NCBI RefSeq assembly: GCF_003334785.1
Contig: NZ_QOWV01000002.1
DNA from: Escherichia coli
GTDB taxonomy: Bacteria > Pseudomonadota > Gammaproteobacteria > Enterobacterales > Enterobacteriaceae
Length of the DNA stretch: 64,000 nucleotides
Reading direction: 5' to 3' (one strand)
How positions within the stretch are numbered: the first letter of the stretch is position 1; the number at the start of each line of letters is the position of its first letter. The position numbers were made by a program, and so were the translations under genes. Under the pieces are notes generated by a model. That model was not told the origin of the DNA, did not search any database, and saw only the letters and a program-made list of their open reading frames with translations. Shown piece by piece: positions 4,522 to 64,000 of the stretch.

Positions 4522-5075
4522 AGCGCAAAGTATTGTTAATTCCGTTGATTATCTTCCTGGCGATTGCCGCGGCGCTGCTGTGGCAGCTGGCGCGTAATGC
4601 CGAAGGGGATGATCCGACCAATCTGGAATCGGCGCTCATTGGCAAGCCTGTGCCGAAGTTTCGTCTCGAATCACTGGACAATCCGGGGCAGTTTTATCAG
4701 GCGGATGTGCTGACTCAGGGCAAACCAGTACTGCTTAACGTCTGGGCGACCTGGTGTCCGACCTGCCGTGCGGAACATCAATATCTGAATCAGCTTTCTG
4801 CGCAGGGCATCCGCGTGGTCGGCATGAACTATAAAGACGATCGCCAGAAGGCAATCAGCTGGCTGAAAGAGCTGGGCAATCCTTACGCGCTAAGCCTGTT
4901 TGATGGCGATGGCATGTTAGGGCTGGATCTCGGTGTCTATGGCGCGCCAGAAACGTTTCTTATTGACGGCAACGGCATCATTCGCTATCGCCATGCGGGC
5001 GATCTGAATCCTCGCGTCTGGGAAGAAGAGATCAAGCCGCTGTGGGAGAAATACAGTAAGGAGGCCGCACAATGA
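4518..5075 (+). CDS. ccmG: Thiol:disulfide interchange protein CcmG/DsbE
   Basis: 185 aa with thioredoxin motif WATWCPTC; ATGA overlap with ccmF. Confidence 0.95.
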   Translation: MKRKVLLIPLIIFLAIAAALLWQLARNAEGDDPTNLESALIGKPVPKFRLESLDNPGQFYQADVLTQGKPVLLNVWATWCPTCRAEHQYLNQLSAQGIRVVGMNYKDDRQKAISWLKELGNPYALSLFDGDGMLGLDLGVYGAPETFLIDGNGIIRYRHAGDLNPRVWEEEIKPLWEKYSKEAAQ

Positions 5076-6124
5076 GGTTTTTATTGGGCGTGCTGATGCT
5101 GATGATCTCCGGCTCAGCGCTGGCGACCATCGATGTGTTGCAGTTTAAAGATGAAGCACAGGAACAACAGTTCCGTCAGCTCACTGAAGAACTGCGCTGC
5201 CCGAAATGCCAGAACAACAGCATTGCCGATTCCAACTCGATGATTGCCACCGACCTGCGTCAGAAAGTGTATGAACTGATGCAGGAAGGTAAAAGTAAAA
5301 AAGAGATTGTCGATTATATGGTGGCGCGTTACGGCAACTTCGTCACTTACGATCCGCCGTTAACGCCGCTGACCGTGCTGCTGTGGGTGCTGCCAGTAGT
5401 GGCTATTGGCATTGGCGGTTGGGTCATATACGCCCGCTCGCGGCGTCGGGTACGCGTGGTGCCGGAAGCGTTTCCTGAACAAAGCGTGCCGGAAGGTAAG
5501 CGTGCCGGATATGTTGTTTATCTGCCGGGTATTGTGGTGGCGTTAATTGTGGCTGGCGTCAGCTACTACCAGACTGGCAATTATCAGCAGGTGAAAATCT
5601 GGCAGCAGGCCACGGCACAGGCTCCGGCGTTGCTGGACAGGGCGCTGGATCCGAAAGCCGATCCGCTCAACGAAGAAGAGATGTCGCGTCTTGCGCTGGG
5701 GATGCGTACTCAACTGCAAAAAAATCCGGGAGATATAGAAGGCTGGATTATGTTGGGCCGCGTTGGCATGGCGCTGGGTAACGCCAGTATCGCCACCGAT
5801 GCATACGCCACTGCGTATCGCCTCGATCCGAAAAACAGTGATGCTGCACTGGGATACGCTGAAGCGTTGACTCGTTCATCTGATCCCAACGACAACCGCC
5901 TCGGCGGTGAACTGCTACGTCAGCTGGTGAGAACGGACCATAGCAATATCCGTGTGCTAAGCATGTATGCGTTTAATGCCTTTGAGCAGCAGCGATTTGG
6001 CGAAGCCGTTGCCGCGTGGGAGATGATGTTGAAACTCTTACCTGCCAACGATACTCGCCGTGCGGTGATTGAACGTAGTATCGCGCAGGCGATGCAACAT
6101 TTGTCGCCGCAGGAGAGTAAATAA
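5072..6124 (+). CDS. ccmH: Cytochrome c-type biogenesis protein CcmH
   Basis: 350 aa with LRCPKCQNNSIADS motif and a TPR-like C-terminal half; ATGA overlap with ccmG. Confidence 0.95.
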   Translation: MRFLLGVLMLMISGSALATIDVLQFKDEAQEQQFRQLTEELRCPKCQNNSIADSNSMIATDLRQKVYELMQEGKSKKEIVDYMVARYGNFVTYDPPLTPLTVLLWVLPVVAIGIGGWVIYARSRRRVRVVPEAFPEQSVPEGKRAGYVVYLPGIVVALIVAGVSYYQTGNYQQVKIWQQATAQAPALLDRALDPKADPLNEEEMSRLALGMRTQLQKNPGDIEGWIMLGRVGMALGNASIATDAYATAYRLDPKNSDAALGYAEALTRSSDPNDNRLGGELLRQLVRTDHSNIRVLSMYAFNAFEQQRFGEAVAAWEMMLKLLPANDTRRAVIERSIAQAMQHLSPQESK

Positions 6125-6183
6125 AAAGAGGCCCGATGGTGATGCCATCGGGCTAGACTGTTGACAAAGTGCGCTTAGTTTAT

Positions 6184-6283
6184 GCCGGATGCGGCGTGAA
6201 CGCCTTATCCGGCCTACAAAATTGTGTAAATTCAATAAATTGATCGATCCACGTAGGCCTGATAAGCGTAGCGCATCAGGCAG
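6184..6283. repeat. BIME: two REP elements in inverted orientation between ccmH and narP
   Basis: gccggatgcggcgtgaacgccttatccggcctaca (6184-6218) and gtaggcctgataagcgtagcgcatcaggcag (6253-6283), typical REP palindromes. Confidence 0.8.
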
Positions 6284-6305
6284 TTTTGCGTTTGTCATAA
6301 ATCTC

Positions 6306-6339
6306 AGCCCGATGATAAATCCATCGGGCTATTTTTATT
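6306..6339 (+). terminator. Hairpin plus T-tract at the narP 3' end; candidate intrinsic terminator for nap-ccm read-through
   Basis: agcccgatg / catcgggct 9-bp stem, 7-nt loop, followed by atttttatt; the T-tract overlaps the narP stop codon on the opposite strand. Confidence 0.5.
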
Positions 6340-6982
6340 GTGCCCCGCGTTGTTGCAGGAACAGAATGGTGGCCGCCACGCGTGAGCGGACATTGAGTTT
6401 ACGCAGCAGATTGCGAATATGTACTTTTACTGTCTGCTCGGAAATATTCAACACCGAGGCAATCTGTTTATTTGACAGCCCCTGTGCCAGCTCGTGCAGA
6501 ACATCCAGCTCGCGCTCCGTCAGCACGCTGAAGGGATCTTCTTCCGCGCCAAACATTTCACGTTCACGTAAGTACTGATTGACGCGTTCGCTAAAGACTT
6601 TGCTGCCTTTCGCTCCGGCACGAATCGCTTCCAGCAATACTTCCGGGTCGCTGTCTTTCAACAGATAACCGTCTGCGCCTGCGTCTATCAGCGCAAAGAC
6701 ATCGCTGGAGGCATCGGATACGGTCAGGATAATAATTTGCGCGGTAACGCCATCCCTGCGCAAGGCATTGAGAGTATCCAGGCCACTCATACCTTTCATA
6801 TTGAGATCCAGCAAGATCACGTCGATATCCAGTCTATTCGCCAGATCGATAGCGCTCGCGCCGTCGCCCGCTTCGGCGACCACTTCAAAGCCAGGATCAA
6901 GCTCCAGTAACTGACGAACACCGCGTCGCATAAGTGGATGATCATCCACAATCATCACCTGAAAAGGCGTTGCTTCAGGCAT
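6335..6982 (-). CDS. narP: Nitrate/nitrite response regulator NarP
   Basis: 215 aa from the ATG at 6982 (MPEATPFQVMIVDDHPLMRRG...), receiver domain plus LuxR-type HTH; track ORF starts at an upstream alternative codon. Confidence 0.93.
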   Translation of the reverse strand: MPEATPFQVMIVDDHPLMRRGVRQLLELDPGFEVVAEAGDGASAIDLANRLDIDVILLDLNMKGMSGLDTLNALRRDGVTAQIIILTVSDASSDVFALIDAGADGYLLKDSDPEVLLEAIRAGAKGSKVFSERVNQYLREREMFGAEEDPFSVLTERELDVLHELAQGLSNKQIASVLNISEQTVKVHIRNLLRKLNVRSRVAATILFLQQRGAQ

Positions 6983-7301: not shown

Positions 7302-9893
7302 ATGCATCAATCTGGTTCTGTTTCTCTTTGTCGTTCCGCAATATCTGTTCTGGTGGCTACAGCGTTATATTCACCCATAGCATTGGCATCAACTGTTGAG
7401 TATGGTGAGACAGTTGATGGTGTTGTCCTGGAAAAAGATATCCAGCTGGTTTATGGGACCGCCAATAATACGAAAATCAATCCTGGCGGAGAACAGCATA
7501 TAAAAGAATTTGGTGTAAGTAATAATACTGAAATTAACGGAGGGTATCAGTACATTGAAATGAATGGCGCCGCAGAATACTCAGTATTAAATGACGGTTA
7601 TCAAATTGTTCAAATGGGTGGCGCGGCAAACCAGACTACGCTCAATAATGGTGTGCTACAGGTTTATGGCGCAGCGAATGATACCACGATTAAAGGCGGG
7701 CGCTTAATCGTTGAAAAAGATGGGGGGGCCGTCTTTGTCGCTATCGAAAAGGGAGGACTACTGGAGGTTAAAGAGGGGGGATTTGCATTTGCGGTAGATC
7801 AGAAAGCAGGCGGTGCTATTAAAACAACCACGCGGGCCATGGAGGTATTCGGAACAAACCGTCTCGGTCAGTTCGATATCAAGAATGGTATTGCTAATAA
7901 TATGTTGTTGGAAAACGGCGGAAGTTTGCGAGTTGAAGAAAATGACTTCGCTTATAATACCACTGTAGATAGTGGCGGCTTACTGGAGGTTATGGATGGC
8001 GGGACTGTAACTGGCGTTGATAAAAAAGCAGGCGGAAAATTAATTGTCTCAACGAATGCGCTGGAAGTGAGTGGTCCAAACAGTAAAGGCCAATTTAGTA
8101 TAAAAGATGGTGTGTCAAAAAATTATGAACTGGATGATGGTTCCGGGCTCATTGTTATGGAGGACACGCAGGCCATTGATACTATCCTTGATAAGCATGC
8201 CACTATGCAATCGCTGGGAAAGGATACTGGTACGAAAGTGCAGGCAAATGCGGTATATGATCTCGGTCGATCATATCAGAATGGAAGTATCACGTATTCC
8301 TCAAAAGCCATCTCTGAAAATATGGTTATCAACAATGGCCGCGCTAACGTCTGGGCTGGCACAATGGTTAACGTTTCAGTCAGAGGGAATGATGGCATTC
8401 TTGAGGTCATGAAGCCGCAAATAAATTATGCACCCGCAATGTTGGTGGGTAAGGTAGTGGTTTCTGAGGGCGCTTCTTTTAGAACGCATGGTGCCGTGGA
8501 TACCAGCAAAGCGGACGTTTCGCTCGAAAATAGCGTATGGACCATCATTGCCGATATCACTACGACGAACCAAAACACCCTCCTCAACTTAGCCAACCTT
8601 GCGATGTCTGACGCAAATGTGATTATGATGGATGAGCCAGTGACTCGTTCATCAGTGACGGCAAGTGCGGAAAATTTCATTACGTTGACCACCAATACCC
8701 TGTCGGGAAACGGCAATTTTTATATGCGTACCGATATGGCTAATCATCAGAGCGATCAGCTCAACGTCACCGGTCAGGCAACAGGTGATTTCAAAATATT
8801 CGTGACGGACACCGGTGCCAGCCCGGCAGCAGGAGATAGCCTTACACTGGTAACAACGGGCGGCGGTGATGCTGCATTTACGTTGGGCAATGCCGGAGGC
8901 GTTGTTGATATCGGTACGTATGAATATACCTTGCTGGATAATGGCAACCATAGCTGGAGTCTGGCAGAGAATCGCGCGCAAATTACCCCTTCAACCACTG
9001 ATGTGCTGAATATGGCGGCCGCACAACCGCTGGTATTTGATGCAGAACTGGACACCGTGCGTGAGCGTCTTGGTAGCGTAAAAGGCGTTAGTTACGATAC
9101 GGCGATGTGGAGTTCGGCAATTAACACCCGCAACAACGTGACCACTGATGCGGGAGCTGGTTTTGAGCAAACATTGACGGGCCTGACGCTCGGTATCGAT
9201 AGCCGTTTCTCCCGTGAAGAAAGCAGTACAATTCGCGGCTTGATCTTTGGTTACTCTCATTCTGATATTGGTTTTGATCGCGGCGGCAAAGGTAATATCG
9301 ATAGCTATACCCTGGGGGCTTATGCCGGTTGGGAGCATCAGAACGGTGCCTATGTTGATGGGGTGGTGAAAGTTGACCGTTTTGCCAACACCATCCATGG
9401 CAAGATGAGTAATGGGGCAACAGCGTTTGGCGATTACAATAGTAACGGCGCGGGTGCTCATGTTGAGAGCGGGTTCCGTTGGGTTGACGGATTGTGGAGT
9501 GTTAGACCCTATCTGGCCTTTACCGGCTTTACCACAGATGGTCAGGACTACACGTTATCAAACGGCATGCGCGCGGATGTGGGAAATACCCGGATATTAC
9601 GCGCTGAAGCGGGAACGGCGGTAAGCTATCACATGGACCTGCAAAACGGTACGACGCTGGAACCCTGGCTGAAAGCGGCCGTGCGTCAGGAATACGCCGA
9701 TTCTAACCAGGTGAAAGTTAATGACGATGGCAAATTTAATAATGATGTGGCTGGAACCAGTGGCGTTTATCAGGCTGGTATAAGGTCATCGTTTACCCCG
9801 ACGTTAAGCGGTCATTTGTCAGTCAGCTATGGCAATAGCGCAGGGGTAGAATCGCCGTGGAATACTCAGGCGGGTGTGGTCTGGACGTTCTGA
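7302..9893 (+). CDS. yejO: Autotransporter (type Va) outer membrane protein YejO, apparently intact
   Basis: 863 aa; N-terminal signal-like segment (SAISVLVATALYSPIALA), repetitive Gly/Asn-rich beta-helix-like passenger, C-terminal beta-barrel ending ...AGVVWTF (aromatic terminal residue). Confidence 0.9.
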   Translation: MHQSGSVSLCRSAISVLVATALYSPIALASTVEYGETVDGVVLEKDIQLVYGTANNTKINPGGEQHIKEFGVSNNTEINGGYQYIEMNGAAEYSVLNDGYQIVQMGGAANQTTLNNGVLQVYGAANDTTIKGGRLIVEKDGGAVFVAIEKGGLLEVKEGGFAFAVDQKAGGAIKTTTRAMEVFGTNRLGQFDIKNGIANNMLLENGGSLRVEENDFAYNTTVDSGGLLEVMDGGTVTGVDKKAGGKLIVSTNALEVSGPNSKGQFSIKDGVSKNYELDDGSGLIVMEDTQAIDTILDKHATMQSLGKDTGTKVQANAVYDLGRSYQNGSITYSSKAISENMVINNGRANVWAGTMVNVSVRGNDGILEVMKPQINYAPAMLVGKVVVSEGASFRTHGAVDTSKADVSLENSVWTIIADITTTNQNTLLNLANLAMSDANVIMMDEPVTRSSVTASAENFITLTTNTLSGNGNFYMRTDMANHQSDQLNVTGQATGDFKIFVTDTGASPAAGDSLTLVTTGGGDAAFTLGNAGGVVDIGTYEYTLLDNGNHSWSLAENRAQITPSTTDVLNMAAAQPLVFDAELDTVRERLGSVKGVSYDTAMWSSAINTRNNVTTDAGAGFEQTLTGLTLGIDSRFSREESSTIRGLIFGYSHSDIGFDRGGKGNIDSYTLGAYAGWEHQNGAYVDGVVKVDRFANTIHGKMSNGATAFGDYNSNGAGAHVESGFRWVDGLWSVRPYLAFTGFTTDGQDYTLSNGMRADVGNTRILRAEAGTAVSYHMDLQNGTTLEPWLKAAVRQEYADSNQVKVNDDGKFNNDVAGTSGVYQAGIRSSFTPTLSGHLSVSYGNSAGVESPWNTQAGVVWTF

Positions 9894-36574: not shown

Positions 36575-36605
36575 GTTACAGGGCAGAAATTTCCTGTCCT
36601 GTAAC
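36575..36605 (+). terminator. Hairpin downstream of fruA (weak T-tract)
   Basis: gttacagggcag...ctgtcctgtaac, roughly 11-bp imperfect stem; followed by attt only. Confidence 0.35.
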
Positions 36606-36986
36606 ATTTGATGAGCGCAAAGAGAATGACCGGTTTGTGAATGTAATTTTATGAATTTAAATGGTTTTATCTTTCAGTAGAAACTTCAAACGTTCATCAA
36701 ACACTCAGGTTATTTCCTCAAGGGCAGATTATTTTCTGCCCTTTTTTATTGTTCTGTTCTGTGCATCCCGTCACAAATTCCTCGCTTTTGTAATTCAGGC
36801 ATTTAATCGCATTTTGTGAGCCTGCTCAAATCTGCCCATTTTGCCTCTCTGGCGGTAATTTACTTTACGTAAAACATGCATACTATGAGCACATGTTTAA
36901 ATATGAACACATGTTTAAACCGTCTTTGCAGTATCTATATTCTTGTGGATTGACAGGGTTGGTAATTTTTTACCAGAGGACGTGCT

Positions 36987-40198: not shown

Positions 40199-40207
40199 TG
40201 CTCGATT

Positions 40208-40246
40208 TGTAGACCGGATAAAACGTATTAAGCGTTGCATCCGGCA
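40208..40246. repeat. REP element between psuT and yeiL
   Basis: gtagaccggataaaacgtattaagcgttgcatccggcaa. Confidence 0.7.
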
Positions 40247-43388: not shown

Positions 43389-43395
43389 GTGTCAT

Positions 43396-43488
43396 TGCCT
43401 GATGCGCAAGCTTATCAGGCCTACATTTACTTGCTGAAATTGCCTGATTTGTAGGCCGGATAAGACGCGTTAAGCGTCGCATCCGGCA
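43396..43488. repeat. BIME: two inverted REP elements downstream of nupX and yeiI
   Basis: gcctgatgcgcaagcttatcaggcctac and gtaggccggataagacgcgttaagcgtcgcatccggca. Confidence 0.8.
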
Positions 43489-43494
43489 ACATTG

Positions 43495-59540: not shown

Positions 59541-59598
59541 TGTGAATGTGGTCCGCATTCGGTCATAAACGCACATAACATCATGATCTGTGTGGTTT

Positions 59599-59777
59599 TG
59601 TAGGCCGGATAAGGCGTTCACGCCGCATCCGGCAACAGGAGCCAAATGCCGGATGCAACGCTGGCGCGTTTTATCCGGCCTACAATAAGCTCAACATACT
59701 GATTTGTATGGTTTTGTAGGCCGGATAAGGCGTTCAAGCCGCATCCGGCGACAGGAACCAAATGCCGGATGCGTCTC
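59599..59777. repeat. BIME cluster: three to four REP elements in two tandem units of about 115 bp, between mglC and preA
   Basis: gtaggccggataaggcgttcaCgccgcatccggcaac and gccggatgcaacgctggcgcgttttatccggcctaca, then a second copy gtaggccggataaggcgttcaAgccgcatccggcgac plus a partial gccggatgcgtctctgg. Confidence 0.8.

Positions 59778-62443: not shown

Positions 62444-64000
<1,557 letters not shown>

Follow-up and report, generated by a model that had tools for sequence, protein, structure and literature searches.

Why should the spacer between two convergent genes of Escherichia coli carry the same hairpin stem twice, once on either side of a pair of REP elements? The question is raised by the ccmH-narP region of the window, by which we mean the whole 64,000-nucleotide stretch of E. 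coli DNA analyzed here (assembly GCF_003334785.1, contig NZ_QOWV01000002.1). The answer that we consider likely is that the twin hairpins are two copies of a REP-like terminator stem placed around a BIME-1 within an otherwise single bidirectional terminator, an arrangement that would undergo recurrent deletion and of which the long form would be the older allele.

ccmH and narP converge on a 210-bp spacer that is 100% identical to that of E. coli K-12. The genes, the hairpins and the sequence tracts attached to them are arranged as follows, in window coordinates.

5072 to 6124, plus strand: ccmH coding sequence, the last gene of the ccm cluster, with its TAA stop codon at 6122-6124 (from the open reading frame list and the RefSeq annotation of identical K-12 BW2952/MG1655 DNA).
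6120 to 6130, minus strand: A-run, equivalent to the U-tract CUCUUUUUAUU on the minus strand and part of the narP terminator (terminator scan).
6131 to 6153: hairpin 1, GCCCGATGG / TGATG / CCATCGGGC, terminator-like on the minus strand (narP sense) only.
6145 to 6155, plus strand: left copy of the 11-nt direct repeat CCATCGGGCTA.
6306 to 6330: hairpin 2, AGCCCGATG / ATAAATC / CATCGGGCT, terminator-like on the plus strand (ccm sense) only.
6321 to 6331, plus strand: right copy of the 11-nt direct repeat CCATCGGGCTA.
6331 to 6339, plus strand: T-run ATTTTTATT, the U-tract of the predicted ccm terminator, overlapping the narP stop codon.
6335 to 6982, minus strand: narP coding sequence, 215 aa, with its stop codon at 6335-6337 (from the open reading frame list and the RefSeq annotation).

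Six nucleotides separate the ccmH stop codon from the start of hairpin 1. A preliminary description of this DNA had pointed to two hairpins with the same stem, gcccgatgg/ccatcgggc, flanking the REP pair, and both their coordinates and their sequences are confirmed here. It was right about the arms GCCCGATG/CATCGGGC, which are common to hairpin 1 and hairpin 2, and missed that the ninth pair of its stem is an A·C mismatch in hairpin 2, so that the core shared by the two hairpins is 8 bp together with the flanking CTA. In a repeat search the two hairpins come up as a direct repeat of 25 nt with 84% identity and a spacing of 176 nt, and the four differences between hairpin 1 and hairpin 2 all fall inside the loop. 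The 64-kb window contains 8 occurrences of the 8-mer GCCCGATG, where 3.3 are expected, and 4 of the 8 lie within this one 200-bp stretch. For each hairpin, on both strands, the folding energy is between -16.4 and -20.5 kcal/mol, with z-scores of -4.6 to -5.5.

Furthermore, the region 6120-6339 as a whole is one long imperfect palindrome, with 75% identity between its left half and the reverse-complemented right half, and in the global minimum-energy fold of the region outer arm pairs with outer arm and inner arm with inner arm. The outer arms, GCCCGATGG of hairpin 1 on the left and CATCGGGCT of hairpin 2 on the right, are invariant across five long alleles of the locus; the inner hairpin arms carry about eight changes across five long alleles, a sample too small to interpret, and have decayed in some lineages, as in hairpin 1 of E69 and A30. 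It might be that selection acts on the long-range pairing between the outer arms, with the whole BIME acting as the loop of one giant terminator.

Between the hairpins lie the two REPs that had also been noticed beforehand, one of Y type and one of Z1 type, and these prove to belong to a larger unit with the following parts.

6155 to 6305: complete BIME-1 unit of 151 bp, with 88-90% identity to the fepA-entD copy in strains without the ccmH-narP copy.
6155 to 6183: A arm of the BIME-1.
6184 to 6217: Y REP, GCCGGATGCGGCGTGAACGCCTTATCCGGCCTAC.
6218 to 6252: L linker, 35 nt.
6233 to 6245, minus strand: IHF-consensus-like site GATCAATTTATTG in the L linker, agreeing with WATCAANNNNTTR at 12 of 13 positions (regular-expression scan).
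6253 to 6282: Z1 REP, with GTAGGCCTGATAAGCGTAGCGCATCAGGC at 6253-6281.
6283 to 6305: B arm of the BIME-1.

The typing of the two REPs follows the BIME-1 definition cited below and the Y and Z1 consensus sequences. The two are inverted (tail-to-tail), as BIME-1 requires, the L linker sequence AATTCAATANATTG is conserved in six BIME-1 copies, the A and B arms are conserved too, and the ends of the unit are imperfect 14-nt terminal inverted repeats, AGACTGTTGACAAA / TTTGTCATAAATCT. By definition, a BIME-1 consists of a Y REP, an L linker that frequently has an IHF site, and a Z1 REP (PMC3333891); judged by its parts, 6155-6305 is an ordinary BIME-1 in that sense. In a table of terminators, this BIME-1 falls under the label REP160 (preprint 10.64898/2026.03.23.713779). 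Full-length paralogues of the element are found at fepA-entD, gcd-cueO, psuK-fruA, yjiR and yvcK-uvrB, all dispersed and all single units.

A search of 5900-6600 against Rfam in E-value mode gave no match for either hairpin and, below threshold, REP-derived matches only (naRNA4 at 6178-6214; ES036 at 6218-6260, scoring 35.6 bits where the gathering score is 37.6), and the MG1655 RefSeq record holds no repeat_region features at ccmH-narP. Beyond the locus itself, a metagenome scan with the 14-mer from the B arm returned 120 loci, 4 of which are enterobacterial BIME-1s, a viral-contig scan with the linker pattern returned the fepA-entD copy only, and no BIME-1 was present in a random 50-kb piece of MG1655.

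The locus exists in two lengths among E. coli strains. The long allele is present in 1505 of 5426 complete E. coli genomes (27.7%), and nearly all the others (about 3900 of 5426, or about 72%) have an allele that is exactly 176 bp shorter, the missing DNA being the following.

6156 to 6331: 176-bp segment missing from the short allele, in one of twelve equivalent placements within the 11-nt repeat.

These 176 bp equal the 151-bp BIME-1 plus one 25-bp copy of the hairpin, and in K-12-type DNA an exact 11-nt repeat, CCATCGGGCTA, marks both boundaries of the indel. What is left in the short allele is AAATAAAAAGAG-GCCCGATGGTGATGCCATCGGGC-TATTTTTATT, or, in its wider context, ...GAGAGTAAATAAAAAGAG-GCCCGATGGTGATGCCATCGGGC-TATTTTTATTG..., a single hairpin with the A-run on one side, the T-run on the other and no REPs. 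That REP-less strains carry exactly one hairpin between the two tracts, at a difference of 176 bp, bears out the earlier suggestion of a duplicated terminator module. A two-hairpin intermediate without the BIME does not occur among the matches listed. The idea of two independent terminators that are alike by chance was also considered, and is ruled out by the exact 176-bp indel together with the shared arms.

More than one kind of short allele has been preserved. In TR01, a single genome of the 5426, the hairpin has a chimeric loop, GCCCGATGGTAAATCCATCGGGC, that corresponds to positions 1-10 of hairpin 1 followed by positions 11-23 of hairpin 2, and the short allele of E. whittamii, GCCCGATGGTTAATCCATCGGGC, shows one further difference from the TR01 chimera. 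For a short allele with a pure hairpin-2 loop there was no exact match in any genome, the best match being the TR01 chimera itself. The alleles also occur on closely related backgrounds: O157 AR-0429 (common short allele), TR01 (chimeric short allele), and A30 and 33E (long allele) show at most 3 differences per 430-nt flank, and the K-12-like long allele of the window shows 1 difference on the narP side from the short allele of ATCC 8739. The short alleles of B2 strains lie 9-14 differences away from the AR-0429/TR01/A30/33E group, and the short allele is the only one in the two B2-type genomes sampled. Long alleles of E. coli, in turn, come in two types, that of K-12 and that of A30/33E/PE164, which are 96% identical and sit on different flanking haplotypes.

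How, then, did a terminator come to possess its hairpin twice? The reading that we prefer, and that we regard as evenly poised between right and wrong, is that the second copy is a target-like duplication of 20-25 bp made at the insertion of the BIME-1. The empty ccmH-narP allele has one hairpin copy, and in the long allele the two copies have identical arms and loops that differ at 4 of 7 positions. A comparable structure is found at psuK-fruA in B2-type strains (1194 of 5426 genomes), where GGGCAGAGATGTTTCTGCCC and GGGCAGAGATGTCTCAGCCC stand on either side of the BIME-1 as a 20-nt direct repeat with 18 of its 20 positions in agreement. This repeat contains a terminator hairpin that is not a REP and whose loops agree in direct orientation and, as at narP, the gene-proximal copy is without a U-tract and the distal copy has one. 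Seven BIME-1 loci were examined in all, one of which (L207) is cut off on one side, and the duplication is present at two of the seven, namely ccmH-narP and psuK-fruA. No flanking hairpin duplication is seen at fepA-entD, gcd-cueO (where the empty allele was compared), yjiR or yvcK-uvrB, four BIME-1 loci that are readable on both sides. In four of the seven cases a terminator-type hairpin lies immediately next to the B end of the BIME-1. Perhaps BIME-1 integrates at the foot of GC-rich terminator hairpins and at least sometimes duplicates a 20-25 bp target spanning the hairpin, a generalization that we hold to be decidedly doubtful. The difference between the two hairpin loops predates the split of E. 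coli from E. albertii, which implies either that a simple duplication is much older than the crown of the genus or that the copies were never identical. An inverted duplication, such as palindrome extension would produce, was tried as the origin of the pair and rejected, the hairpin-2 loop matching the reverse complement of the hairpin-1 loop at 1 of 5 positions, against 2 of 5 in direct orientation.

It is possible, if on balance unlikely, that hairpins 1 and 2 are instead the decayed remains of two older 'GCCCGAT...ATCGGGC' REPs that made up an earlier BIME at this site, that the BIME-1 was nested there later, and that the shared stem is a family consensus. Indeed, the arms GCCCGATG/CATCGGGC agree with the REP stem pattern GCC-N-GATG...CATC-N-GGC and are the stem of the REPs at the orthologous site in Citrobacter, where a tail-to-tail REP pair lies at ccmH-narP with GTAGGCCCGATAAGCGTAGCGCCATCGGGCA as its narP-proximal member and, in other Citrobacter species, GCCCGATGGCG...TTATCGGGCC as its ccmH-proximal member. 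These Citrobacter REPs share the outer stems of hairpins 1 and 2 and are placed as those are with respect to both stop codons, and the two hairpin loops show no relationship, whether compared directly or inverted. However, such an origin would need two independent truncations to near-identical hairpins of 23-25 nt with identical arms of 8-9 nt. The two REPs are of different stem classes in each Citrobacter species examined, and in Salmonella enterica subsp. diarizonae ccmH-narP contains just one short hairpin, GCCCGGTGGTGCCAGGCCATCGGGC. Neither hairpin has the GTAG/CTAC head expected at the foot of a REP stem (hairpin 1 is followed by TAGAC, or by CAGAC in other lineages, and hairpin 2 is preceded by CTCA), and in place of the hundreds of copies per genome that are typical of REPs, a hairpin-1 query finds one place per genome. 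Furthermore, psuK-fruA shows that a true direct duplication of a non-REP hairpin can accompany BIME-1.

Returning to the preferred reading of a duplicated terminator hairpin, the geometry of the long allele suggests how it could be lost. Deletion between short direct repeats is stimulated by a palindrome between them, as in the precise excision of Tn10 or Tn5. Two direct-repeat hairpins bracketing a palindrome of 150 bp would likewise favor slipped-strand or short-homology deletion, and such a deletion would take with it the BIME-1 and one copy of the hairpin and restore a single A-run/hairpin/T-run terminator. A crossover in the right arm would yield the common short allele of E. coli, in which the loop of hairpin 1 is kept; a crossover at the boundary between left arm and loop would yield the chimeric loop, as in TR01 and, with one further difference, in E. 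whittamii. The single-hairpin allele of E. coli is probably a deletion product that has formed more than once, a view based on about ten flanking haplotypes and no genome phylogeny, so that very short conversion tracts could mimic repeated deletion.

We find it improbable that a RAYT enzyme, with no slippage involved, cuts C^T at the 3' foot of each hairpin (GGGC^TA, at 6153/6154 and 6329/6330) and excises the intervening DNA as a single-stranded circle. This proposal would follow Ton-Hoang et al., who reported C^T as the dinucleotide conserved at the cleavage site and put forward an excision model for BIMEs, and both hairpins of K-12 type are indeed followed by C^TA, with which the boundaries of the indel coincide. 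Yet GTAG/CTAC, where one of the two reported iREP cleavage sites lies, is missing from the hairpins, and the foot of hairpin 1 reads GGCC^AGAC in the long alleles of A30 and E. albertii and thus lacks the CT, even though a short allele occurs on an A30-like haplotype. Moreover, alleles with a chimeric loop cannot come from cuts at the 3' foot, and are among the products for which slippage between the two hairpins would account.

Species-representative genomes were scanned with NarP for ccmH-narP alleles, and the long allele was found with both hairpins in E. albertii NBRC 107761 and in 'E. coli' SCPM-O-B-8794 (flanks 88-93% identical to the window), and with hairpin 1 partly decayed in 'E. coli' E69 (flanks 92-95% identical to the window). 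Between long-allele lineages the spacer and insert are 86-89% identical and the flanking coding DNA is 84-95% identical; since the insert has diverged along with its flanks, descent looks vertical, with no recent transfer. The loop of TR01, in which hairpin 1 is joined to hairpin 2, likewise requires a two-hairpin parent. From the alleles compared we conclude that the two-hairpin allele is the older state within Escherichia. At a deeper level, before Escherichia, a single hairpin may have been the state of the site, as it is in S. enterica subsp. diarizonae.

The reverse polarity, a single ancestral hairpin within E. coli, had been raised in the preliminary description and is not supported. 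It would make the long allele a derived insertion that spread by recombination and passed horizontally to other Escherichia, and we judge it very improbable. The short allele is the majority one (about 72%) and the sole allele in the two B2-type genomes sampled, E. whittamii is short, and S. diarizonae has one hairpin, all of which a late insertion would accommodate, but the long allele is present in E. albertii and two other divergent lineages, and across the four long-allele lineages the inserts are 86-89% identical and have diverged about as much as their flanks. The K-12-type and A30-type inserts, at 96% identity, are found on distinct haplotypes, and long and short alleles share near-identical flanking haplotypes. 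It is implausible that one element was inserted again and again at a single nucleotide, each time with identical junctions. Short alleles with a chimeric loop exist as well, and that of TR01 needs its two-hairpin parent.

Weakest of all, and hardly credible, is the thought that the mobile palindromic unit has the hairpins as its own terminal inverted repeats, as the long imperfect palindrome at 6120-6339, with its 75% identical halves and paired outer arms, might suggest, but paralogous BIME-1 copies end AGAYTG...TCTC without such hairpins (fepA-entD, gcd-cueO, yvcK-uvrB), the flanking hairpin at psuK-fruA differs in sequence and matches the local terminator, and the hairpin-1 query matches a single place per genome. 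The unit at ccmH-narP ends AGACTG...AATCTC and, given where its paralogues stop, does not include the hairpins. The query, which consisted of hairpin 1 with its own loop and flanks, gave a median of one match per genome in 5423 genomes (by BLAST, from which stem-only copies would escape), and among 256 loci examined the stem pattern GCCCGATG...CATCGGGC was found at ccmH-narP only. The preliminary suggestion that the hairpins are the ends of a small inserted palindromic unit is therefore refuted at the sensitivity used.

The two alleles also differ in how transcripts of the convergent genes are brought to an end. In a terminator scan, hairpin 1 is called on the minus strand only, with the tail CTCTTTTTAT, and hairpin 2 on the plus strand only, with the tail ATTTTTATTG; each hairpin keeps its outer U-tract only, and the canonical terminator of each gene is consequently the distal hairpin. 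Term-seq places a 3' end at MG1655 2291359(+), ...GCCCGATGGCATCACCATCGGGCCTCTTTTT|ATTT, in at least 2 conditions (Adams et al., 2021, supplementary file 1). Converted to the window (window = 2297482 - MG1655), this is position 6123, which is the final U of the tract that follows hairpin 1 and falls within the stop codon of ccmH. For log as well as stationary phase, a table in preprint 10.64898/2026.03.23.713779 has an overlapping bidirectional termination site at MG1655 2291323-2291356, which it associates with REP160. In window coordinates that site is 6126-6159, i.e., hairpin 1. We take the columns of the table to resemble those of the SEnd-seq table that Ju et al. presented in 2019.

These published 3'-end data show that narP transcripts continue past hairpin 2 and the BIME-1 to stop at hairpin 1, in agreement with hairpin 1 and the A-run being a hairpin plus U-tract on the narP strand. 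It follows that the 3' UTR of narP in the long allele is about 210 nt, contains the BIME-1 and ends inside the ccmH stop codon; in the short allele the narP 3' UTR is predicted to be about 35 nt. In the ccm direction, the Term-seq table (from cultures that were probably not ccm-inducing) has no ccm-sense 3' end at hairpin 2 and no coordinate starting 22911. Because no 3' end is listed at hairpin 2, its role on the ccm side is one that we infer from sequence, hairpin 2 and the T-run together being the predicted terminator of the ccm operon or a back-stop to it. A literature search found no publication on the narP-ccmH terminator.

Taken singly, the components of this arrangement are familiar, with an ordinary BIME-1 at the core and, in hairpin 1, a terminator that had been catalogued before. 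In the searchable literature we found neither the hairpin duplication around the BIME-1 nor the alternative crossover products described. On the reading given here, the locus would be a clean, datable case of BIME-1 loss by recombination between duplicated flanking hairpins, and at least two classes of crossover are preserved in nature at ccmH-narP. Furthermore, the long and short alleles form a natural pair for testing the effect of a BIME on mRNA stability, on termination and on interference between convergent genes. If hairpin duplication generally marks BIME-1 insertion, for which two loci are thin evidence, it would constrain models of how the element spreads. If true, target duplication combined with inverted ends would also constitute a transposon-like footprint, of a kind reported absent for REPs, and the first sequence-level clue to the movement of BIME-1.

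It is worth setting the locus beside the systems that it most resembles. With the BIME-1 family (also known as RIP or RIB), the core at 6155-6305 shares inverted Y and Z1 REPs, a 35-nt linker, an IHF-consensus-like site, its occurrence as a single unit, and its paralogues; the two flanking hairpins of ccmH-narP do not belong to the family. Bachellier and colleagues are said to have described, in 1997, the loss of whole BIME-1 units between E. coli isolates. The ccmH-narP locus shows the same clean presence or absence of a complete BIME-1, with the difference that its indel is bounded by a duplicated terminator hairpin and that alternative crossover points are visible. The precise excision of Tn10 and Tn5 offers the same plan of an 8-11-nt direct repeat around a long palindrome, with one copy of the repeat left behind; at ccmH-narP such a process is proposed from sequence. 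Elements of the MITE type compare with BIME-1 in that the latter likewise has imperfect 14-nt inverted ends and, at two loci, direct repeats of local sequence. The BIME-1 repeats, however, are 20-25 bp long, span a whole hairpin and are missing at most loci, and reviews hold that REPs show no MITE signatures (PMC3184786). Finally, among the overlapping bidirectional terminators revealed by SEnd-seq (Ju et al., 2019, per 10.1101/2022.10.23.513370), the short allele is a textbook case of A-run, hairpin and T-run, and hairpin 1 of the long allele appears in a published table of such sites; the long allele as a whole, in contrast, is a split module, with one tract to each hairpin and 176 bp, including the BIME-1, between its halves.

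Across five divergent long alleles of the ccmH-narP spacer, those carrying both same-stem hairpins with the BIME-1 element between them, the outer arms, namely the left arm of hairpin 1 (6131-6139) and the right arm of hairpin 2 (6322-6330), show no change; the inner arms (6145-6153 and 6306-6314) carry approximately eight changes in the same five alleles. Directly past the T-run of hairpin 2, the spacer of E. coli strain 33E holds a copy of IS200C (L094:2728-3480). The insertion (...CCATCGGGCTATTTTT|GTGCACAG...) separates hairpin 2 from the stop codon of narP and is a further case of an element inserting at the foot of hairpin 2. Among short alleles, which have one hairpin and lack BIME-1, the loop TAAAT, a hybrid of the two hairpin loops, was found in a single one of 5426 complete E. 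coli genomes, that of O157:H7 strain TR01 (L091:487-509). Because the TR01 flanks differ from another O157 genome at four further positions in ~1 kb, this region may be recombinant, or else its assembly may be imperfect.

BIME-1 also adjoins hairpins at other sites. The psuK-fruA spacer of B2-type E. coli (L150:3206-3839, - strand) contains a second BIME-1 with a 20-nt direct repeat on both sides (18/20 matching) that includes a terminator-type hairpin (GGGCAGAGATGTTTCTGCCC ... GGGCAGAGATGTCTCAGCCC), an arrangement found in 1194 of the 5426 genomes. The K-12-type allele, present here at 36590-36760 (- strand reading), is without BIME-1 and runs from a hairpin, GGGCAGAAAATAATCTGCCC, and its U-tract through ~130 bp of unrelated AT-rich DNA to a second hairpin, which contains GGGCAGAAAT in inverted orientation; its fruA 3' end is also unlike that of the B2 type. 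At gcd-cueO, BIME-1 adjoins a terminator hairpin, ATGCCCGGAGAGATCCGGGCAT, without any duplication on its flanks (L125, L256 and L255). E. coli genomes have this spacer in one of three lengths:

764 bp: BIME-1 plus an extra A-arm/Y-REP unit
701 bp: plain BIME-1
546 bp: empty site

In Citrobacter sedlakii, a 33-bp tandem duplication, CAGCAGCTTTCGCCGCCGAAGGAGTAACCTTA, takes in the ccmH stop codon and sits just upstream of the REP (L032).

Five further REP/BIME clusters occur in the window, none of them a full BIME-1:

13361-13400: REP/BIME cluster
40206-40246: REP/BIME cluster
43394-43490: REP/BIME cluster
59596-59775: REP/BIME cluster
63518-63548: REP/BIME cluster

Elsewhere in the window, the yejO autotransporter ORF (7302-9893) is uninterrupted at 863 aa; in MG1655 an IS5 interrupts yejO, so the sequence probably derives from a K-12-like strain and not from MG1655.

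Within the ccmH-narP BIME-1, two Rfam sRNA families match below their gathering scores: ES036/CssrF on the linker (6218-6260; 35.6 bits, gathering score 37.6) and naRNA4 on the Y REP (6178-6214; 38.3 bits, gathering score 59.5). Both families appear to have been constructed on BIME/REP sequence.
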